Source: Escherichia coli phage KS_S14
Sequence record: LC788706.1
Strand: one strand, 5' to 3'
DNA: 64,000 bases
Position numbers and translations under genes: made by a program. The notes beneath the pieces were generated by a model. The model had not been told where the DNA came from. It ran no database searches and saw only the letters and a list, made by a program, of their open reading frames with translations. This document shows positions 50,817 through 63,880 of this stretch, one piece after another (positions within the stretch are counted from its first letter, which is position 1; the number at the start of each line of letters is the position of its first letter).

Positions 50817-51203
50817 ATGAGCAAAGATATAGAATTAGAACACGCCCTGCATAATTATACCTCTTACTTGGAGGGTAATGAAGTAAAAGAATTAACTAAG
50901 GAACAAATCCTACTAATTCTAGATTCTCTAGTTTTAAAGTTTAAAAAACTAGAGGAATACTACTCCGTAGGTAATGGGGATGAAAGAGTAGAACTATCTC
51001 TAAGTCTTCTAGAAGATATGGGGTGGGATGAAGATGACCAAGTAGGGTACTTGGGGATTTCTGTAGAAATCTTAGAAAACACAGAACATGAAGATATTTT
51101 AGAAGTGAAAAGTAGAACAGCTATTCGTTATGGTACTTATGGAAGTGGAATAACTGGATTAAAAGCGCTTCTTAGTATGGATCTAGGATGGTTAGATGAG
51201 TAA
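50817..51203 (+). CDS. hypothetical acidic protein
   Basis: 128-aa ORF after T5-type promoter. Confidence 0.4.
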   Translation: MSKDIELEHALHNYTSYLEGNEVKELTKEQILLILDSLVLKFKKLEEYYSVGNGDERVELSLSLLEDMGWDEDDQVGYLGISVEILENTEHEDILEVKSRTAIRYGTYGSGITGLKALLSMDLGWLDE

Positions 51204-51741
51204 ACAACCGACACTAGAGAGATTAAAAGAACTTCTAAATTATGATCCTGATACCGGAATATTTACTAATAAAATAAGTAGAGGTAGGGGAGGTAAAGCC
51301 GGAGCAGTTGCTGGTTATTTAAGAAAAGATGGTTATATAACTATAAAAATAGATAAAGTAGATTATCTAGCCCATAGACTGGCATTCCTGTATATGACAG
51401 GGAGTATTCCTGACTTAGTAGATCATATAAATCGTATACGGTCAGATAATAGATGGAAAAATTTAAGAGAATCTACTAGTCAAATTAATAATAGAAACTG
51501 CACTGCCTCTAGCAAATCAGGGTACTTAGGGGTACATTGGAATAAGCAACTACAAAAGTGGCAAGTACAGATAATAAACTGTGAGGGTAAGAATATTTAT
51601 GGTGGAATATTCGAATATCTAGACTTAGAGAACGCCGTATTAAAAGCAAATACCTTGAGACACGAGTTACATGGTAAAGATGCTGTAGAAGAAATATTTT
51701 ATAATAACTATTATCCTACATTAGAGGATCTTAATAAATGA
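51196..51741 (+). CDS. HNH homing endonuclease
   Basis: 181 aa; AHRLAFLYMTG...VDHINRIRSDNRWKNLRE HNH motif. Confidence 0.7.
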   Translation: MSKQPTLERLKELLNYDPDTGIFTNKISRGRGGKAGAVAGYLRKDGYITIKIDKVDYLAHRLAFLYMTGSIPDLVDHINRIRSDNRWKNLRESTSQINNRNCTASSKSGYLGVHWNKQLQKWQVQIINCEGKNIYGGIFEYLDLENAVLKANTLRHELHGKDAVEEIFYNNYYPTLEDLNK

Positions 51742-52224: not shown

Positions 52225-52270
52225 AAAAATTTTCTTGCTTAAAGCCCTCTAATTTAGTATAATATTCGTA
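52225..52270 (+). promoter_or_regulatory. T5-type early promoter
   Basis: TTGCTT (52235-40), 17 bp, TATAAT (52258-63). Confidence 0.65.
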
Positions 52271-52290: not shown

Positions 52291-52575
52291 ATGCGAATTT
52301 ATAACTCAAATTCATCAGGATTTAAACCATTGAGAAAACGTGCACAATCACCTCGTCAAATAAGAAAGGCTAATATTGGTGAGCCAGAGACACGTCTTCC
52401 ACCTCCTCCAGAACAACGTTTAGTTTATCTGGACGAAGAATTAGCTGAACGCGAAAGAAAAGCTCAAGAAGAGATTGAGCGTAAGAAAATGTGTACTGCT
52501 CCAGCCTACTCCAAAGGGGCTTATCAGTATATTTATACAGCCGAGGAGGCTAAAGATGCGGGGCGTAAAAAATGA
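52291..52575 (+). CDS. hypothetical protein
   Basis: 94-aa ORF, RBS gaggag. Confidence 0.4.
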   Translation: MRIYNSNSSGFKPLRKRAQSPRQIRKANIGEPETRLPPPPEQRLVYLDEELAERERKAQEEIERKKMCTAPAYSKGAYQYIYTAEEAKDAGRKK

Positions 52576-53021
52576 AGATTACTGAATTTAAAGGTGCTTA
52601 TAGTTTCTTATCAAACTTTTATTTATCACCAATTACTTTCGAATATCTAAATGAAATATGGCATGCTGATACTGTAGAACATGCTTTTCAGGCTATGAAA
52701 TCAGACCAAAAAGATGATGTAGCTCATGTACTACGATCTCTAAACGCAGGAGTTGCCAAACGTAGAGGACGTAAATTAACTCTACGCTCTGACTGGGATA
52801 AAGTAAAAGATGATGTAATGCTAGAACTTTTACGGTTAAAGTTCGCAATCCCTGATTTGAGAGACAAACTGTTAGCAACAAAAAATGCAACTTTGATTGA
52901 AGGAAATACCTGGGGAGATACATATTGGGGTGTTTGCCGAGGCATCGGGGATAATACTTTAGGAGTTCTTTTGATGCAGGTAAGGTCTGAAATTAAAAGA
53001 AGCTTACAGTTAATAAATTAA
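52572..53021 (+). CDS. NADAR-family (YbiA-like) protein
   Basis: 149 aa; FLSNFYLSPI, HADTVEHAFQAMK, EGNTWGDTYWGV. Confidence 0.65.
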   Translation: MKITEFKGAYSFLSNFYLSPITFEYLNEIWHADTVEHAFQAMKSDQKDDVAHVLRSLNAGVAKRRGRKLTLRSDWDKVKDDVMLELLRLKFAIPDLRDKLLATKNATLIEGNTWGDTYWGVCRGIGDNTLGVLLMQVRSEIKRSLQLIN

Positions 53022-53055
53022 AAATTCATTTGCTAAACGCTTCAAATTCTCGTAT
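53010..53055 (+). promoter_or_regulatory. T5-type early promoter
   Basis: AAAATTCATTTGCTA with TTGCTA (53019-24), 18 bp, TATAAT (53043-48). Confidence 0.65.
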
Positions 53056-53096
53056 AATATACTTCATAAATTGATAAACAAAAAGGAAAACAAATA

Positions 53097-53612
53097 ATGG
53101 CTAAGCAGAAAAACGCAAAAACTCAAGCAGCTCCGGCAGTTAAAACTTTCCCGAAGACTGAGGCTAACCGCAAAGCTCGTCTGGAACGTCACCTGCGCAA
53201 GCATCCTACTGATGCTCAAGCTGCACAGGCACTGAATCGTCCGGCTCCGATTCGTCAAAAGCCGAAGGCTAAGAATGCTACTCGTTCTGTAGCCCGCCTT
53301 GTGACCTATGTACAGGGTTATGGTCACAAATCTGTTCCAGTAACACTGAGTTTCAATGCTGGAGCTGAATTGTTCTCTCGTAATGGTATGTCTATGAAAG
53401 ACTATGAGAAGGCAGTTAACCAGAAGCGTAAACCAACAGCAGATGTATTGCGTGATACTCGTGGACAGTTTGGTTCTGTTAAGCCAAATATCTTTGGCGT
53501 AGAGTATAGTAAAGATAATGTTCGTGCTCTGTGTTACGGTGTAGGCATTAAGTTCACGGGTGATTCTGCTCGTAAATCTGCTAAACCAGCTCGCAAGCGT
53601 AAAGCGAAGTAA
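53097..53612 (+). CDS. highly basic hypothetical protein
   Basis: 171 aa, Lys/Arg/Ala-rich termini, codon usage resembling highly expressed enterobacterial genes. Confidence 0.5.
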   Translation: MAKQKNAKTQAAPAVKTFPKTEANRKARLERHLRKHPTDAQAAQALNRPAPIRQKPKAKNATRSVARLVTYVQGYGHKSVPVTLSFNAGAELFSRNGMSMKDYEKAVNQKRKPTADVLRDTRGQFGSVKPNIFGVEYSKDNVRALCYGVGIKFTGDSARKSAKPARKRKAK

Positions 53613-53676: not shown

Positions 53677-53892
53677 ATGTTCTCTAAGAAACCACGTTCC
53701 GTTACTGAAATCGTTGCTTCCTTTACCACTATCACTGATGAGCTTCAAGCTCGTATTGAGGCTGATCAAAAAATTGCTGCGGATATTCAGAAACAGCAGG
53801 AAGAACTCGCTTTAAAGTTGGCTGAAACCAACAAGAGTGAAAAATCTGCCCAAACTATTATGGAAAATATCCTTAAACTGCTGGGCAAGTAA
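53677..53892 (+). CDS. hypothetical coiled-coil protein
   Basis: 71-aa ORF bounded by hairpins. Confidence 0.4.
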   Translation: MFSKKPRSVTEIVASFTTITDELQARIEADQKIAADIQKQQEELALKLAETNKSEKSAQTIMENILKLLGK

Positions 53893-54198: not shown

Positions 54199-54900
54199 AT
54201 GAAAGTAAAACCATTTGGTATGCTAGATATTGAATCTCTAGGAACTCCAGGAGATTGTGGTACTACTCATATCGCAATGCCTTCTTTCGCCTTTGTAGCT
54301 ATGCATGGGATTGATAAAGACCCTGACTTAGTATTTGTTACTTTGGATGTGCAGGATCAGCTTAATTCTGGTGCCAAAGTTACAGCATCTACTCTAGCAT
54401 TCTGGATGGATCAGGCTAAACATAGCCCGTCTGCTATCCACATTATGGAAGCTATGAATGAGCGTAATCCAAAACTGATTGCCTTCCAAAATGGTAAACA
54501 TCATTGCACTAATAAACTTGGCTCTAACCATGCTGCCTTCTCTATGGCTCAAAATATTATGGAGTTGGCTCTAGGCGAAAATGCTTTGTATTATGGCAAT
54601 GGCCCAGAGTTTGATATGACTATCTACTCTGCAAACACTTTCCATGCTGGAACCAATGAAGAAATAGTTCCGTGGAAATTCTGGAACTTGGGTAATGTTA
54701 GATCTCTTCGTAATCTCTGGATGCAAACTGGCTATAGTTATAAAGCTCTAGAAACCGAAGGTATTAGCTGGGCAATAGCTAAAATGGAGAAGATGGACAC
54801 CATTCGTTATGGGATCTATCCGGTTAAGCACGACCCAGCATTCGATGCCTTAGTTGAGAGCTATTGTGTTGCAGCTATGATCGAAAAAATGAAAATTTGA
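54199..54900 (+). CDS. DnaQ-fold 3'-5' exonuclease (T4 DexA-like)
   Basis: 233 aa; N-terminal LDIESLGT (D.E motif), KFWN, C-terminal HDPAFDAL. Confidence 0.55.
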   Translation: MKVKPFGMLDIESLGTPGDCGTTHIAMPSFAFVAMHGIDKDPDLVFVTLDVQDQLNSGAKVTASTLAFWMDQAKHSPSAIHIMEAMNERNPKLIAFQNGKHHCTNKLGSNHAAFSMAQNIMELALGENALYYGNGPEFDMTIYSANTFHAGTNEEIVPWKFWNLGNVRSLRNLWMQTGYSYKALETEGISWAIAKMEKMDTIRYGIYPVKHDPAFDALVESYCVAAMIEKMKI

Positions 54901-58591: not shown

Positions 58592-58666
58592 CGGGGTGTA
58601 GTCTAAGGGAGAGGCAGGAGTCTTCTAAATTCCTTTATGCAGGTTCGAATCCTGTCACCTCGGCCA
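58592..58666 (+). tRNA. tRNA-Arg (anticodon TCT)
   Basis: Hand fold: acceptor CGGGGTG/CACCTCG, anticodon stem GGAGT/ATTCC, loop CTTCTAA, T-arm GCAGG-TTCGAAT-CCTGT, encoded CCA. Confidence 0.6.
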
Positions 58667-58700
58667 ATTTTATTAACTGTAACTAAAACAAAGGAAACAT

Positions 58701-59648
58701 ATGTTTAATACTAAAAATATGAAAGAACTGACTTCTGAGCAGAAAGTAATTCGTACTATTAAACGTTGGGGTATTGGTGCTGTAGTTGGTTTAGCAGGCT
58801 TGATTCTAGCTTTTAATTCATATACTATTGTTTCTGATGGTACGGTTAAAACCCAAACATTCCTGGGTAAAGTAGATCCTAATCCAGTATTGCCTGGTTT
58901 CCACCTTGTAAACCCGTTTGCATCTTTCGATACTTTTAGTACAAAAGATATTGCTGTAAAATTATATAAACTTCAGGTTCCTAGCCAGGATAAGTTTAAA
59001 TCCACTGTTGACCTGACTGTTATGTTGCAGTTTGATGGTTCTAAGGCACCGATTAACCGTATTAACGCAGGTACTCAGGATCAGGCACTAGACAAGTATG
59101 TAACTGAAAAATTACTGTCTACTATTCGTGAGTTTGGTAAGTCTGTACCTAAAGCACAAGATTTATTTGATGCTAAAATTCAGGCTCAATTGCAAACTGC
59201 AATTCAACAGGAAGTTGAAGAGTATGCACGCCCATATGGTTACACAGTTAAGCAGGTGTTCCTTCAGGATATTACTTTGCCACCGGTAATCATGGAACAG
59301 GTACAGAATACCAAAGTTCGTGAAGAACAGGTTAATGCTGCGAAAGCTGAACTGGCTCGCGTTGAACAAGAAGCTCAGCAGAAAGTCAAACAAGCAGAAG
59401 CAGACCGTGAAGCTCGCAACAACCAAGCTATTGCCAATGAACGTGATGCAGATGCTAAACTGTACGCAGCTAAGAAAGAAGCTGAAGCTAACGCCGCATT
59501 GCAACGTACCATTACTCCTGAGATGATTCGCTGGAAGCAACTGGAAGTTGAAATGATTCGTGCTCAGAAATACCAAGGTGGTGTACCGCAGACTGTGGTT
59601 GGCACTGGCTACGATGGTCAAATGATTATGGATATGCGTAATAAATAA
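58701..59648 (+). CDS. SPFH / band-7 (prohibitin-like) membrane protein
   Basis: 315 aa; N-terminal TM helix (GIGAVVGLAGLILAF), SPFH-like core, Ala/Glu/Gln-rich coiled-coil. Confidence 0.65.
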   Translation: MFNTKNMKELTSEQKVIRTIKRWGIGAVVGLAGLILAFNSYTIVSDGTVKTQTFLGKVDPNPVLPGFHLVNPFASFDTFSTKDIAVKLYKLQVPSQDKFKSTVDLTVMLQFDGSKAPINRINAGTQDQALDKYVTEKLLSTIREFGKSVPKAQDLFDAKIQAQLQTAIQQEVEEYARPYGYTVKQVFLQDITLPPVIMEQVQNTKVREEQVNAAKAELARVEQEAQQKVKQAEADREARNNQAIANERDADAKLYAAKKEAEANAALQRTITPEMIRWKQLEVEMIRAQKYQGGVPQTVVGTGYDGQMIMDMRNK

Positions 59649-59672
59649 TATCCACATGTAACACCTGAAGTA

Positions 59673-59708
59673 AGCCCTGCGTTTCCTGGAGAGCGCAGGG
59701 CTTTTCTG
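59673..59708 (+). terminator. rho-independent terminator after SPFH gene
   Basis: AGCCCTGCG...CGCAGGGCT then TTTTCTG. Confidence 0.7.
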
Positions 59709-59724
59709 TACTTAAGATAAAAGA

Positions 59725-59755
59725 AAAGCCCCTAAGTCTTTCGACTAGGGGCTTT
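59725..59755 (-). terminator. terminator for convergent minus-strand Q-rich gene
   Basis: GCCCCTA(A)GTC...GACTAGGGGC; minus strand followed by TTTTCTTTT. Confidence 0.6.
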
Positions 59756-59972
59756 ATTGTTTGGTTCTTCAGAACCATATACTCTTATTACAGCAACCAC
59801 CCATACGGGAGGCCAATCTTGACTGAAAATCTACTCTAGGGGGCAGGATAAGAGTAGGCTTAAAGGCAAACGGATTGAACGCCGGTATTTGCGTAAACAT
59901 TGCTGGAGAGCAACAACGTGCTACAGGCATTGGGCAGCACGAAACAGATTTTCTGCAACACATAATTCCTCC

Positions 59973-60389
59973 TTAGGAGTTATTACCACTATTTTGAGCT
60001 TTTGCAACCTGGCTTTGGCAGAAGCTATTAAACTTACCCATAAGTGATACAAGCTGTTTACCATCCTCTGTCTTTGCGAAGTCTTCGAAAAGGGCTAGTA
60101 CTGCCTGTCCTTCCGCAGAAACCTGCGGTTGTTGGGTTTGCTGCTGAGCTTGCTGCTGCGGCACCTGTTGCTGCATTTGTTGAGGCATTTGCGACTGCCC
60201 GCTCATTTGCTGCATCATTTGCATAGGACTCACACTTCCAGGGTTTTGCTGGAGTTGTTGCTGCATCTGTTGCGCTTCTGCTAAACGCTGTTGCAATTGT
60301 TGTAAGTAGGGGTTATCCAGACCAGGAATGGGCTGCTGGGAGCCCATACTTTGATTAAGTCCGTTATTTACAAAACCATATTTACTCAT
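59973..60389 (-). CDS. Gln-rich low-complexity protein
   Basis: 138 aa, central Q/M/P-rich tract. Confidence 0.5.
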   Translation of the reverse strand: MSKYGFVNNGLNQSMGSQQPIPGLDNPYLQQLQQRLAEAQQMQQQLQQNPGSVSPMQMMQQMSGQSQMPQQMQQQVPQQQAQQQTQQPQVSAEGQAVLALFEDFAKTEDGKQLVSLMGKFNSFCQSQVAKAQNSGNNS

Positions 60390-60410
60390 AATGGGCTCCT
60401 CCCCTTAATA

Positions 60411-61398
60411 TTAAGCCGGCAGTTTAGCCTGCAGACCAGCCAGAGTCTGAGTGATAGCACCAAGACTTACAGCGATTTGATTAATTACCTGACCGTTAGC
60501 ACCGGTACCCGCAGCGATTGCTTCACGTAGGCGACATGCATCTAACTCATCCTGAATACGCGCAGTAGTTACACCAGCGATCGCAGTCTGAAGTTCACAG
60601 CAACATTCAGCGATCTGACGTTCCAGAGAGTTCTGGTTAGCACACATCTGAGCCTGAACAGCGACAAACTGGTTATTAGTTTGTAAAGTCTGCTGGAAAG
60701 CGATCTGTGCAGAATCAAACTTATCTTGTGCACGAGCTATCTGGTTAGCTGCGAAAGATTGATCGATCTGGCGAGAAAGATCGAACTGACCCTGAATAAC
60801 GTTGCGGGTTTCCTGGCAGATCTGATTAGACAGATTAGCACCTGTACCATAGATCGTAGTTAGTACAGACTGAGTATCACGGCTCTGGTTTTGGGATGTC
60901 TGGCTAAAACCATTGTTAACTGCGCTTAAAACAGCTCCAGTACCCTGGTTAGCTTCTGTACGAGTAGTGTTAATAGCTGCTAGAATACTAGCGGTATCTT
61001 GGTTCTGAAGTACTGCATCAACTGCGGTACCTTCACCAACTACACCACGTCCACCGAATCCACCGAAACCACCGAATCCGCCTGTTAATAGAGCACCGAT
61101 TAGGATAGCTCCGAATAGACCCATACCTTCCCCACCGAAAGCACCTGCGTTTGCTGGATAACCACCCAGTAGGCCAGGGAAGCCACTAGTGAATACGTTT
61201 ACTGGTTCTTGCATTTTATGTTTTCCATATTTATGACAATGCTCATCATCGTCATCTTCTTCATCATCGTGTTCACGATGTTTTTCTTCGTAGGCTCTGA
61301 CCTTCTCCCACTTTTTCTTATCTGATTCCTCGTGACGGTGCAGTTCTGCTGCAACGCTAGCGACGGTCTCAGGACTCTTAGCTACTTCTTCTGTCATT
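60411..61398 (-). CDS. glycine-zipper membrane protein with acidic/His-rich N-terminus and Gln/Asn/Thr-rich C-terminal region
   Basis: Start taken at MTEEVAK with RBS aggagg (ORF-track start 61457); GMGLFGAILIGALLTGGFGGFGGFGG segment. Confidence 0.5.
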
Positions 61399-61469
61399 TT
61401 TTGACACCTCCTAGTATATAGAAAATGTGTGTCTCTTTGATCACTCATCCATAACATATACTTTACACT

Positions 61470-61515
61470 ACCCCAGCGAAAATGTCAAGGGGTCTTTAAA
61501 AATTGCCCCCGGATT
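61470..61515 (-). promoter_or_regulatory. sigma70-like promoter (TTGACA type, minus strand) upstream of Gly-zipper/Q-rich gene pair
   Basis: Minus strand reads CCCTTGACATTTTCGCTGGGGTAGTGTAAAGTAT (TTGACA, 17 bp, TAAAGT). Confidence 0.4.
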
Positions 61516-61594
61516 TTTAGTGGGGTCACAAATTTTGGTCCTCACCACTTATCTGCTACCCTTAAGTGCCCTATGATTTTCCTCTAAAAAGTTA

Positions 61595-61640
61595 AAAAAT
61601 TTGATTGCTTGAATGCTAAATTCTCTGTATAATATATCTA
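61595..61640 (+). promoter_or_regulatory. T5-type early promoter
   Basis: TTGCTT (61605-10), 17 bp, TATAAT (61628-33). Confidence 0.65.
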
Positions 61641-61663
61641 TAAATTTGAGAGAGGAACCAAAT

Positions 61664-62182
61664 ATGAATGTTGATGAACTAACAGAACATCTCTTATCTA
61701 GAGGGTTTGATACAGATAAATATCACTGCTGGCTAAGCCCAGAAGGATGGCTAACAGTCCCATTGTATGACTTCTCTGGGATGTTGAGAGGCTATCAGAC
61801 TTATAATCCTTCTGCTCCAAAAGGTCATGGTAAACGCCCCTTTGAAGCTAGATATTTTACTTATTCTACTACACAGTGTGTAGGGGGACTAGAAACTCTC
61901 AATGGAGACGAAAAAGTAGTATTGATTGCTGAATCTGTATTTAAGGCAGTTGCGTTACATAACGCTGGTTATCCAGCCCTGGCAATGTTGGGTTCTTCCC
62001 CTGGAAAAGCGTTGTTAAAGCAATTGAAATTACTACCTTTTAAATTGGTAGCTGTTGGGGATAATGATCCTGCTGGTGAAAAATTTGCTAGACAATTAAA
62101 TGGATTTGTTTCTCCTGTAGATGTGGATGAGATGTCTACCGAAAACTTGAAAAATTTTCTTGCTATGAAGCTAAATTTCTAA
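61664..62182 (+). CDS. Toprim-like small protein
   Basis: ATG 61664 with RBS gagagga; IAESVF (Glu) and VGDNDPAG (DxD) Toprim-like. Confidence 0.45.
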   Translation: MNVDELTEHLLSRGFDTDKYHCWLSPEGWLTVPLYDFSGMLRGYQTYNPSAPKGHGKRPFEARYFTYSTTQCVGGLETLNGDEKVVLIAESVFKAVALHNAGYPALAMLGSSPGKALLKQLKLLPFKLVAVGDNDPAGEKFARQLNGFVSPVDVDEMSTENLKNFLAMKLNF

Positions 62183-62195
62183 TATAATATATTTA
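62155..62195 (+). promoter_or_regulatory. T5-type promoter immediately upstream of tRNA-Ser
   Basis: TTGCTA (62160-65), 18 bp, TATAAT (62184-89); lies in 3' end of preceding ORF. Confidence 0.55.
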
Positions 62196-62202
62196 TAAAT
62201 TC

Positions 62203-62291
62203 GGAAGAATAGCATAACGGTATTGCAGCAGATTGCTAATCTGTCGGTTTGAAATATAGCCTTGTGGGTTCGATTCCCACTTCTTCCGCCA
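62203..62291 (+). tRNA. tRNA-Ser (anticodon GCT), long variable arm
   Basis: Acceptor GGAAGAA/TTCTTCC, 3-bp D-stem, anticodon stem GCAGA/TCTGT, loop TTGCTAA, long variable arm, T-arm GTGGG-TTCGATT-CCCAC, encoded CCA. Confidence 0.7.
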
Positions 62292-62297
62292 AATTCT

Positions 62298-62375
62298 GGT
62301 TCTCAAGCTCATATGGTATGAGCACCCGGCTCATAACCGGAAGGTACGTAGGTTCGAATCCTCGGGGAGCCACCA
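62298..62375 (+). tRNA. tRNA with CAT anticodon (Met or Ile2-type), weak T-stem
   Basis: Acceptor GGTTCTC/GGGAGCC with G-U pairs, D-stem GCTC/GAGC, anticodon loop CTCATAA, TTCGAAT T-loop but only 3 T-stem pairs; encoded CCA. Confidence 0.45.
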
Positions 62376-62395
62376 ACTTAATTAGGGGATTACAA

Positions 62396-62584
62396 GTGGA
62401 ATTATACATAGTTTATGTTGTGTTTATTCAAGATAGAGAATACCCTGATGAATATAAAAAAGGATATAGGTTAGCCAGAGCTACTTCTGAAGCCCAAGCT
62501 ATGGATAAAGTGGCAGATTATATGCTTACAGTAGAAAACGTACACTACATCGACTACCTTGAAGCCTCAAAAGTAATTGACTAA
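62396..62584 (+). CDS. hypothetical small protein
   Basis: 62-aa ORF from GTG 62396 after RBS aggggat; the longer ORF-track ORF from 62249 overlaps tRNA genes. Confidence 0.3.
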   Translation: MELYIVYVVFIQDREYPDEYKKGYRLARATSEAQAMDKVADYMLTVENVHYIDYLEASKVID

Positions 62585-62591
62585 ACTACAC

Positions 62592-62668
62592 GGGGGTGTA
62601 ATCGAATTGGCATAGGTACTGGACTTAAAATTCAGGTTTTGTGGGTTCGAATCCCACCACCCCTACCA
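62592..62668 (+). tRNA. tRNA with TAA anticodon (Leu-like) and short variable loop
   Basis: Acceptor GGGGGTG/CACCCCT, anticodon stem CTGGA/TTCAG, loop CTTAAAA, T-arm GTGGG-TTCGAAT-CCCAC, encoded CCA; short variable loop is atypical for Leu. Confidence 0.5.
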
Positions 62669-62843
62669 AATTAAGGAAATAAGATGTATAGACACCCACC
62701 TCCGCCAACACGTCGTTCTAGAGAAGTTATCCTCATGGAATTGACTAAAAACTTCAAGGCAACTCTTGAGGATAGAGATTTAGGCACGGATGAAGACATT
62801 GATTTTATTTGTAGACTATTAAAGATGAAACTGGAGAAACAAC

Positions 62844-63050
62844 ATGGCTAATCCTGAAATTACCATGCAACGATTCATGGCTAAAGGCATGATAGCTGAG
62901 GCAGGCATTGAACAAGAAGTAAAAAGTTATTACGAACAGATTAAGGGTATTGTAGACTCGGCTAAAAACACCGGAGAAAAAGAACATGGTGCGGCAATTA
63001 TGGCTATAACTCTTATTAGTCTAGACTTGGCCGAAGAATCTGGAGTTTAG
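62844..63050 (+). CDS. hypothetical protein
   Basis: 68-aa ORF, RBS ggaga. Confidence 0.4.
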   Translation: MANPEITMQRFMAKGMIAEAGIEQEVKSYYEQIKGIVDSAKNTGEKEHGAAIMAITLISLDLAEESGV

Positions 63051-63069
63051 CTCCTCCAAACAGAATTTT

Positions 63070-63115
63070 TAAAAATGTACTTGCCTTTTGCTTTAAATTT
63101 CTGATATAATAGTTG
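63070..63115 (+). promoter_or_regulatory. T5-type early promoter
   Basis: TTGCCT (63081-86), 18 bp, TATAAT (63105-10). Confidence 0.6.
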
Positions 63116-63140
63116 TATAAATTGATGAAGGAGTTAACGA

Positions 63141-63416
63141 ATGCAAAATCGTGTTATAGCAACTGGTATTGAAAGTGCAATCTGCAAATCCTGGGAAGAC
63201 TGGGAAGGTGAGATTGAGTGGCTCTATCTCTATAACGTAGAGCTTTTACCAGAAGTTAAAGCTGAATGTATTGAAGCTGGCATGGCTCCAGATGCAAAAG
63301 CTGATATTGATATTTTAATGTCTGAACTTAAAGGTCGTGTAGTTACTGTTAGTACTGAGGGTGAAGAAGTTTTTGAACTTCCGTTCTCCTTAACTGTCAC
63401 TCCTAAGTTCGACTAA
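63141..63416 (+). CDS. hypothetical acidic protein
   Basis: 91-aa ORF, RBS gaaggag, T5-type promoter upstream. Confidence 0.45.
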   Translation: MQNRVIATGIESAICKSWEDWEGEIEWLYLYNVELLPEVKAECIEAGMAPDAKADIDILMSELKGRVVTVSTEGEEVFELPFSLTVTPKFD

Positions 63417-63424
63417 CTAATACA

Positions 63425-63463
63425 GCACTGAGCAAGTTCTTCAAAATTTGACTTGCTCAGTGC
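63425..63463 (+). terminator. inverted-repeat hairpin overlapping promoter -35
   Basis: 12-bp arms GCACTGAGCAAG / CTTGCTCAGTGC. Confidence 0.45.
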
Positions 63464-63485
63464 CTTAAAACTTGGTATAATAGTT
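63440..63485 (+). promoter_or_regulatory. T5-type promoter upstream of tRNA-Tyr/Glu cluster
   Basis: TTGCTC (63453-58), 17 bp, TATAAT (63476-81); -35 lies in 3' arm of an inverted repeat. Confidence 0.55.
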
Positions 63486-63544
63486 ATCTAATTCGGAAAC
63501 ATATTTAAAAGTGTTTAAACTAGTATTTGAATACTTTTAAATAT

Positions 63545-63635
63545 GTTGGATTAGTATCGTAGAGGTAGCGAAGCAGACTGTAAATCTGCCGACTCGGAAG
63601 GGTCTCGGGTGGTTCGACTCCATCATCCAACACCA
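63545..63635 (+). tRNA. tRNA-Tyr (anticodon GTA), long variable arm
   Basis: Acceptor GTTGGAT/ATCCAAC, anticodon stem GCAGA/TCTGC, loop CTGTAAA, long variable arm, T-arm GGTGG-TTCGACT-CCATC, encoded CCA. Confidence 0.7.
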
Positions 63636-63642
63636 AATTTAA

Positions 63643-63719
63643 GTCCTGTTAGACAAACTGGTAAAGTCACTACCCTTTCAAGGTAGGGTTTGCGGGTTCG
63701 ATCCCCGCACAGGACCCCA
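63643..63719 (+). tRNA. tRNA-Glu (anticodon TTC)
   Basis: Acceptor GTCCTGT/ACAGGAC, anticodon stem CTACC/GGTAG, loop CTTTCAA, T-arm GCGGG-TTCGATC-CCCGC, encoded CCA. Confidence 0.7.
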
Positions 63720-63728
63720 ATTAATAAT

Positions 63729-63796
63729 TGGGGTACGCATAGGTTGCAAATGGGCCTCCAAAACCCATGAAAAGGTTTCGAATACCTTTACCCCTG
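63729..63796 (+). tRNA. tRNA-like element with 9-nt anticodon-like loop, no CCA
   Basis: Perfect T-arm AAGGT-TTCGAAT-ACCTT, acceptor-like GGGGTA/TACCCC, 5-bp stem ATGGG/CCCAT enclosing 9-nt loop CCTCCAAAA, minimal D-arm. Confidence 0.3.
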
Positions 63797-63805
63797 CTAA
63801 AATTT

Positions 63806-63880
63806 GCACCTTTAGCTGAGATGGATTAGCGCTTGCCTGAAGAGCTTGAGAGGTTCGTTCGATACGAACAGGGTGCACCA
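63806..63880 (+). tRNA. tRNA, anticodon ambiguous (GAA or CTG)
   Basis: Acceptor GCACCTT/AGGGTGC, D-stem GCTG/TAGC, T-arm GTTCG-TTCGATA-CGAAC, encoded CCA; anticodon stem has two alternative registers. Confidence 0.5.

Follow-up and report, generated by a model that had tools for sequence, protein, structure and literature searches.

Why does a T5-like phage carry a stand-alone gene of the NADAR family among its early genes, and which modification would the product remove? The locus that raises this question lies in a stretch of 64,000 nucleotides from Escherichia coli phage KS_S14 (record LC788706.1), which we analysed as a whole and refer to as the window. The window comes from a T5-like phage (Demerecviridae, Markadamsvirinae), and the 2.5 kb around the gene are 94-97% identical to many Escherichia and Salmonella T5-like phages. 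A first-pass annotation had read here an open reading frame (ORF) of 149 amino acids with a NADAR signature, placed it in an early region, and proposed a counter-defence role for its product, the removal of ADP-ribose that DarT-type toxins attach to guanine.

The ORF and its family are readily confirmed. The sequence and the ORF list contain it at exactly the coordinates first proposed (Table 1), running from ATG to TAA. When the Pfam HMM check is run, the NADAR profile PF08719 (DUF1768) matches residues 9-142 over profile positions 9-163 of 163, well above its gathering cutoff of 35.1 (78.9 bits, E=6.9e-22). A further match is to PHROG 1017 (E=8e-45), a family of phage proteins without assigned function. 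A single-sequence comparison with solved structures picks out E. coli YbiA (2B3W, E=3.5e-15) and the NADAR protein of Phytophthora nicotianae (8BAU, E=6.7e-7); in a profile search of solved structures the YbiA match reaches E=9.8e-37. Matches of this strength cannot be put down to chance. At the codon level the gene differs from its ortholog in IrisVonRoten (Bas32) at 11 positions, ten synonymous and one nonsynonymous, and from the Lindwurm ortholog by 19 synonymous differences and one nonsynonymous difference. Judging from this synonymous excess (10:1 and 19:1), the gene is under strong purifying selection, which argues for an expressed gene and against a chance ORF.

The most informative relative of the protein has been tested in cells. 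The window protein shares 148 of its 149 residues with bas32_0066 (QXV80247.1) of Escherichia phage IrisVonRoten (Bas32 in the BASEL collection). The sole difference, K104E, was classed as conservative and falls in a column that is variable in an alignment of 40 homologs, beside the invariant T103. The exact window sequence is encoded in other phage records too. The protein bas32_0066 has been described as AdfN^Bas32, and an identical protein is found in Bas33 (Johannesman, Carlson & LeRoux, Nat Commun 2025, PMC11825919; preprint PMC11257639). Expressed from a plasmid, AdfN^Bas32 is enough by itself to neutralise DarT1 in uninfected E. coli, and its ectopic expression brings RB69, T5 and Bas25 back to full titre on DarTG1 hosts (PMC11825919). 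T5 on the thymidine-modifying DarTG2 is not rescued (PMC11825919). The evidence in that paper for AdfN^Bas32 is ectopic expression only, and our literature search found no report of a deletion of the NADAR gene in Bas32 or another T5-like phage, nor of an assay of purified AdfN^Bas32.

By sequence, the gene in the window is a one-residue-different ortholog of this tested protein, and the anti-DarTG1 finding itself is already published. The counter-defence claim of the first-pass annotation thus stands for DarTG1, given the identity to AdfN^Bas32 (PMC11825919), and does not stand for DarTG systems in general, as DarTG2 is not countered. We consider it very probable that the gene encodes an orphan ADP-ribosylglycohydrolase of the NADAR family, of the AdfN^Bas32 type and directed against DarTG1.

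The predicted fold agrees with the family assignment. An alignment-based AlphaFold model of the protein (pLDDT 97.9, pTM 0.91) consists of helices and two small groups of strands, as expected for the YbiA-like fold, in which an alpha-helical core lies between two small beta-sheets. In a Foldseek search of the PDB the model matches YbiA 2B3W with a TM-score of 0.82 and the ADP-ribose-bound Phytophthora NADAR 8BAU with 0.77, and this search gave no further significant match.

Schuller et al. (Mol Cell 2023, PMC11543638) delineated the NADAR active site with the ADP-ribose co-structure 8BAU and with mutants of E. coli C7 DarG1. We took the residue list from that work and obtained equivalences from a profile alignment of the window protein to 8BAU. 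Four residues have counterparts in both proteins: E36 (E43 in P. nicotianae 8BAU, E88 in C7 DarG1), K43 (K50, K95), K63 (K75, K115) and E110 (E125, E173). A further five are paired with 8BAU: R67 (R79), W75 (W89), K79 (R93), D116 (D130) and W119 (W133). The ADP-ribose-binding and catalytic NADAR residues are all present, namely E36, K43, R67, W75, E110, D116 and W119, and E36, K43, E110, D116 and W119 are invariant across the 40 homologs, which are 47-59% identical to the window protein. The pairing of E110 with P. nicotianae E125 is seen in the aligned segments 'LIEGNTWGDTYWG' and 'LYEASR-HDAIWG'. YbiA and the Phytophthora NADAR were the only solved structures among our sequence, profile and fold matches; because no DarG1-type structure was matched, the C7 DarG1 equivalences rest on the mapping in PMC11543638.

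These observations suggest a simple course of events. In a DarTG1 host, DarT1 would place ADP-ribose on the N2 of guanine in single-stranded phage DNA and so block replication. The phage protein, whose gene is most likely co-transcribed with a small upstream gene (ORF94) from an early T5-type promoter, would bind the ADP-ribose through K43, R67, W75, D116 and W119. It would then use E36 and E110 to cut the N-glycosidic bond between ribose and guanine, restoring replicable DNA. In this it would act as the host DarG1 antitoxin does, with no need of a partner protein. Thymidine-linked ADP-ribose would be left in place, giving no protection from DarTG2.

The specificity proposed here is in keeping with the enzymology of the family: every NADAR subtype tested in vitro hydrolyses guanosine-ADP-ribose and not thymidine-ADP-ribose (PMC11125620). 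For the window protein itself, we infer the hydrolysis of guanine-linked ADP-ribose from the in-cell results for AdfN^Bas32, which is 99% identical. It also fits a DarTG1-directed role that T5, which is blocked by DarTG1 (PMC11825919), lacks exactly the NADAR gene in our genome comparison. The gene would then be what makes the window phage resistant to DarTG1.

How would the gene be expressed? Its neighbours are those of the T5 early nucleotide-metabolism block: ribonucleotide reductase (nrd), dhfR, thyA, an HNH endonuclease, RNase H (rnh) and a T5p088 homolog, here ORF94. On its 3' side lie a DUF7022 protein and then an Rv2179c-like exonuclease-type protein. With thyA, dhfR, nrd and rnh homologs around it and a homolog of the T5 promoter P-H207 a short way downstream, the gene does lie in an early region, as first proposed.

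Table 1. Features of the ORF94-NADAR locus, in positions of the window.
Feature	Position	Strand	Evidence
Probable T5-type early promoter of the ORF94-NADAR unit: A-rich tract, TTGCTT, 17-nt spacer, TATAAT	52235..52263	+	Read by eye; predicted function
ORF94, T5p088 homolog, 94 aa, function unknown	52291..52575	+	ORF list; PHROG 4593 (E=7.8e-54); alignment with T5, BF23 and Bas32
Weak Shine-Dalgarno GGGG, 8 nt upstream of the NADAR ATG	52560..52563	+	Sequence; ribosome-binding site annotated there in Lindwurm
NADAR gene, AdfN^Bas32 ortholog; predicted guanine-ADP-ribose DNA glycohydrolase, putative anti-DarTG1 factor	52572..53021	+	Pfam, Bas32 identity, AlphaFold, Foldseek, residue mapping
T5 promoter P-H207 homolog: TTGCTA, 17-nt spacer, TATAAT	53030..53058	+	Promoter scan (10/12); T5 annotation 'promoter P-H 207'
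DUF7022 protein, T5p087 homolog	53097..53612		

The probable early promoter sits in the intergenic region between rnh and the T5p088 homolog, a region in which a 'putative promoter' is annotated for T5 and an early promoter is predicted in the record of BF23. Our consensus promoter scan did not list it, as TTGCTT agrees with TTGACA at three of six positions. ORF94, for which Pfam gave no match, is preceded in the same intergenic region by a strong GAGGAGG Shine-Dalgarno sequence, and its TGA overlaps the NADAR ATG (ATGA), so that translation of NADAR is probably coupled to that of ORF94. A scan of the plus strand found no terminator-like site between ORF94 and the NADAR stop. Together these signals suggest a unit of promoter, ORF94 and NADAR that would be expressed early. 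The P-H207 homolog, on the other hand, drives the next gene, DUF7022; it lies outside the unit and marks the right boundary of the inserted cassette.

The extent of this cassette becomes apparent when related genomes are aligned. In T5 and BF23, which have no NADAR gene, the T5p088 homolog is followed directly by P-H207 and T5p087. A four-way alignment of the window, T5, BF23 and Bas32 loses identity within the T5p088 homolog, about 22 codons short of its end; this is the left edge of the cassette, and the C-termini of the T5p088 homologs are related as protein and diverged as DNA. Identity with T5, BF23 and Bas32 returns 7 nt past the NADAR stop, shortly before the P-H207 -35 element. The alignment points to a single-gene accessory cassette that consists of NADAR and the diverged 3' end of the upstream gene and nothing else.

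The cassette is far from universal. The region matches 443 T5-like records, 92 of which cover at least 80% of the query from rnh to DUF7022. The NADAR protein is encoded at 95% identity or more in 95 records, i.e. in about 21% or roughly one in five, a count that includes some GenBank/RefSeq duplicates. The Epseptimavirus GreteKellenberger has no NADAR gene at this locus. In another Epseptimavirus, UTK0009, a 60%-identical NADAR gene is found at a neighbouring site, between rnh and the T5p088 homolog, suggesting that this neighbourhood received a NADAR gene twice, in separate events. Further afield, distant relatives (35-55% identity) are found in many unrelated phages of Streptomyces, Vibrio, Bacillus, Xanthomonas and other hosts, and metagenomic homologs number over a thousand proteins. 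One of these, 55% identical, comes from a metagenomic contig of 168 kb, where its neighbours are Thg1, a kinase-like gene (KTI12/AAA_33) and a metallophosphatase.

Could the gene instead belong to the metabolism of its neighbourhood? A YbiA-like damage-control N-glycosidase, acting on reactive intermediates of the riboflavin pathway within the phage nucleotide-metabolism block, would suit the rank of YbiA as the best solved-structure relative, the nearby thyA, dhfR, nrd and rnh, and the public labels 'N-glycosidase', 'GTP cyclohydrolase II' and 'riboflavin biosynthesis protein'. The NCBIfam equivalog-domain model TIGR02464 (riboflavin biosynthesis intermediates N-glycosidase) does match the protein, but its 66.5 bits fall just under the curated cutoff of 73.7, and labels such as 'GTP cyclohydrolase II' and 'swarming motility protein' have been transferred and are not the outcome of tests. 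No rib domain, whether as a ribA/ribD fusion or as a neighbour, was found among the nine flanking proteins scanned; NADAR stands alone. About 79% of T5-like records, T5 and BF23 among them, do without the cassette; such dispensability is typical of accessory or anti-defence genes and not of core metabolism, and the anti-DarT1 phenotype of the near-identical AdfN^Bas32 (PMC11825919) also speaks against a riboflavin role, which we judge to be very unlikely.

The same neighbourhood bears on the thought that the protein serves as antidote to, or regulator of, an ADP-ribosyltransferase of the phage itself, for self-protection and not for counter-defence. There is a precedent in T4-like phages: they express NADARs and phage ADP-ribosyltransferases together as early genes (PMC9503650), and T4 30.3 lies close to alt. 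In the window, however, the nine neighbouring proteins scanned contain no ADP-ribosyltransferase domain, the insertion or deletion that separates the window from T5 and BF23 contains no partner for NADAR, and in uninfected cells AdfN^Bas32 is active by itself (PMC11825919). We give this explanation almost no credence, and a factor directed against the DarT1 of the host is still the account that we favour.

That account has to accommodate some observations that count against it. In sequence the protein is nearer to the housekeeping protein YbiA (40% identity) than to DarG1-type or T4-type NADARs, E. coli YbiA gives no protection from DarT1 (PMC11125620), and the N-terminal extension of DarG1 that is proposed to bind single-stranded DNA is absent. 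In nature, then, the protein's main target may be something other than DarT1-modified DNA, or a wider range of substrates.

What might such a target be? Candidates are ADP-ribosylated nucleic acids of other kinds, such as guanosine-ADP-ribose in RNA and cytidine-ADP-ribose in DNA or RNA, or a soluble ADP-ribose derivative. The protein would then counter defences or toxins other than DarTG1 that are based on ADP-ribosyltransferases, and its action on DarT1 would be one facet of its activity, an idea that is compatible with the explanation that we prefer. NADARs including YbiA and the T4 protein reverse guanosine ADP-ribosylation of RNA (PMC11833690), and YbiA-type NADARs are reported to reverse cytidine ADP-ribosylation (PMC12945103). 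The window protein has the YbiA-type glutamate, E110, along with its 40% identity to YbiA. Iyer et al. argued that phage NADARs target mainly soluble ADP-ribose derivatives (PMC9503650), and the gene neighbours of the 55%-identical metagenomic homolog hint at an RNA-repair setting. On the other side, the sole demonstrated phenotype, that of AdfN^Bas32, is anti-DarTG1 (PMC11825919), and the sensitivity to DarTG1 of T5, which lacks the gene, fits a role directed at that system. We regard a different or broader main substrate as possible but rather unlikely, and retain DarT1-modified guanine in phage DNA as the leading candidate.

In a more speculative vein, one could propose that the protein is a broad-spectrum nucleic-acid de-ADP-ribosylase, which acts on guanine and cytidine adducts in DNA and RNA and against several ADP-ribosyltransferase defences, and that the interval from rnh to P-H207 is a small hot spot of repeated acquisition in the Markadamsvirinae. 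The hot-spot idea arises because two NADAR types sit at two adjacent sites. We offer this proposal tentatively and would not expect it to hold in full.

The scientific gain beyond Johannesman et al. 2025 is small. That said, the results are of use to the curators of phage genomes. About 95 T5-like records label the gene 'swarming motility protein', 'GTP cyclohydrolase II', 'N-glycosidase', 'DUF1768' or 'hypothetical', and these could be renamed as AdfN-type anti-DarTG1 ADP-ribosylglycohydrolases. For phage therapy and host-range studies, the presence or absence of the cassette should predict the growth of T5-like phages on Enterobacteriaceae that carry DarTG1. A question is also raised, namely how a minimal YbiA-like core can be an in-cell antidote to DarT1 when E. 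coli YbiA is not.

Among known systems, YbiA (2B3W) is the closest solved structure. Both proteins consist of the same minimal core with no N-terminal extension; the window protein starts straight at this core, its residue 10 aligning with YbiA residue 26. At the position that defines the subfamilies both carry a glutamate, which is the YbiA-family state. Guanosine-ADP-ribose hydrolysis in vitro is a function that YbiA shares (PMC11125620). The two part company in cells, where YbiA fails to rescue from DarT1 (PMC11125620) whereas the Bas32 ortholog rescues (PMC11825919), and in their genetic setting: YbiA is encoded by a chromosomal gene in a LexA-controlled operon and has a reported role as a riboflavin-intermediate glycosidase. 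We considered net charge as the cause of this difference in rescue and rejected it, as the isoelectric points (9.0 versus 9.1) and the K+R counts are similar. We also note a discrepancy with PMC11825919, which groups AdfN^Bas32 with 'archaeal-type, non-YbiA' NADARs; all of our sequence, profile and structure comparisons put YbiA as the nearest characterised relative.

The DarG1 antitoxins (BC4488 subfamily; E. coli C7, Geobacter lovleyi) belong to the same superfamily, and they likewise reverse guanine ADP-ribosylation by DarT1 and neutralise the toxin without phage factors. They differ from the window protein in three respects. DarG1 has a catalytic aspartate (D171 in C7) where the window protein has L108, with E110 two residues on; it has a beta1-beta2-alpha1 N-terminal extension, the part with the proposed ssDNA-binding role, that the window protein does not have; and it is encoded beside DarT1, while the NADAR gene in the window has no DarT neighbour. 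With no DarT1 neighbour, catalytic aspartate or N-terminal extension, the protein falls outside the DarG1 group.

A role as a defence protein was also considered and set aside. The model for the anti-phage NADAR of DS-32 (NF053876) scores 44.9 bits against a cutoff of 240, the PADLOC model PDC-M42C matches weakly at 27.7 bits, and the context is that of a lytic phage. Both scores reflect shared domain similarity and nothing more.

AdfN^T4 (T4 gp30.3), the founding anti-DarT factor NADAR, is likewise a phage orphan NADAR of about 150 amino acids that counters DarTG1, is guanine-specific and is ineffective against DarTG2. Pairwise similarity between the two proteins is not detectable (BLASTP E=1.1), and hhalign gives a probability of 85.7% over 86 columns, in the N-terminal part only. 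T4-like phage NADARs carry a histidine at the position of E110 (PMC11543638), in place of the glutamate of the window protein. Membership of the T4 AdfN clade is ruled out on these three grounds. The proteins also differ in behaviour, as AdfN^T4 is unable to neutralise DarT1 in uninfected cells whereas AdfN^Bas32 is able to do so (PMC11825919).

The closest counterpart of the locus remains that of AdfN^Bas32. In both phages, which are Tequintavirus-like Markadamsvirinae, the gene lies between the T5p088 homolog and promoter P-H207, with its start overlapping the upstream stop; unlike Bas32, the window has the HNH endonuclease and a 128-amino acid ORF between thyA and rnh. PMC11825919 drew the inference that phages acquired NADARs several times, separately. 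The window gene is a phage-encoded orphan NADAR with no adjacent DarT toxin, as is characteristic of the AdfN class. By the sequence comparisons given here, and in agreement with PMC11825919, its product is a member of the AdfN functional class that belongs to a different NADAR clade from AdfN^T4.

The NADAR gene of the window is not the only one of its kind in these phages. A second NADAR type, recorded as hypothetical, is carried by Salmonella phage UTK0009, where its site, flanked by rnh and the T5p088 homolog, is one gene further upstream than the site used in the window. Because two NADAR types occupy two adjacent sites, the distribution suggests repeated acquisition of NADAR genes in this part of Markadamsvirinae genomes. 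A more distant homolog is found on a 168-kb metagenomic contig that looks like a large phage. It stands in a same-strand run with genes for a dCMP deaminase, a metallophosphatase, a KTI12/AAA_33 kinase-like protein and Thg1 (tRNA-His guanylyltransferase-like), and this gene neighbourhood hints at RNA repair as the role of its clade.

Coordinates of NADAR homologs and of features in the window
Feature	Sequence	Position	Match or setting
128-aa ORF	window	50817-51203	between thymidylate synthase and RNase H
HNH_3 homing-type endonuclease	window	51196-51741	Pfam E=1.2e-14; between thymidylate synthase and RNase H
T5p088 homolog, 94 aa	window	52291-52575	PHROG 4593
71-aa ORF	window	53677-53892	between DUF7022 gene and next small gene
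T5p085 homolog	window	54199-54900	Pfam Rv2179c-like 3'-5' exoribonuclease domain E=3.7e-8; PHROG 255 'exonuclease' E=2.4e-52
Six tRNA genes (Arg-TCT, Ser-GCT, Leu-TAA, Tyr-GTA, Glu-TTC, Phe-GAA)	window	58592-63880	+ strand
Second NADAR type	UTK0009 (NC_111487.1), locus L007	2489-2938	60% identity to window protein
NADAR homolog	ENA ERZ27227484 k141_617669, locus L008	4001-4444	55% identity to window protein

Directly upstream of NADAR, the T5p088 homolog has no Pfam match and is proline-rich in its middle part (RLPPPPEQR). The DNA of its C-terminal tail differs between NADAR-positive and NADAR-negative phages, a difference that is most likely the trace of a recombination breakpoint. Less probably, it may point to a functional link with NADAR, whose translation is probably coupled to that of the T5p088 homolog. 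Further upstream, the 128-aa ORF and the HNH_3 endonuclease are shared with BF23 (hegE) and Lindwurm and are missing from T5 and Bas32 (Escherichia phage IrisVonRoten). The pair therefore represents a mobile insertion that is separate from the NADAR cassette.

On the other side of NADAR, the 71-aa ORF is another small accessory gene. It has no Pfam match; its position carries an annotated gene in Bas32, Lindwurm and GreteKellenberger, an equal-sized gene, oddly labelled 'tail tape measure protein', in UTK0009, and no gene in the annotations of T5 and BF23. The T5p085 homolog is commonly labelled 'metallopeptidase' or 'putative peptidase M14 motif' in public records. With the exonuclease matches listed in the table, we consider the peptidase label to be probably wrong.

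Host names also call for care. Two records of 3.1-3.5 kb titled 'Listeria phage LM 4-14-1' (OR848833.1 and OR848924.1; phage-record matches H26, H48 and H78) contain T5-like sequence, including a NADAR 100% identical to that of the window. Campylobacter phage names are also borne by some T5-like records. Both the Listeria- and the Campylobacter-named records are probably mislabelled or contaminant assemblies.

Finally, the six tRNA genes clustered at the window's right end form, as expected, the T5-type tRNA region.
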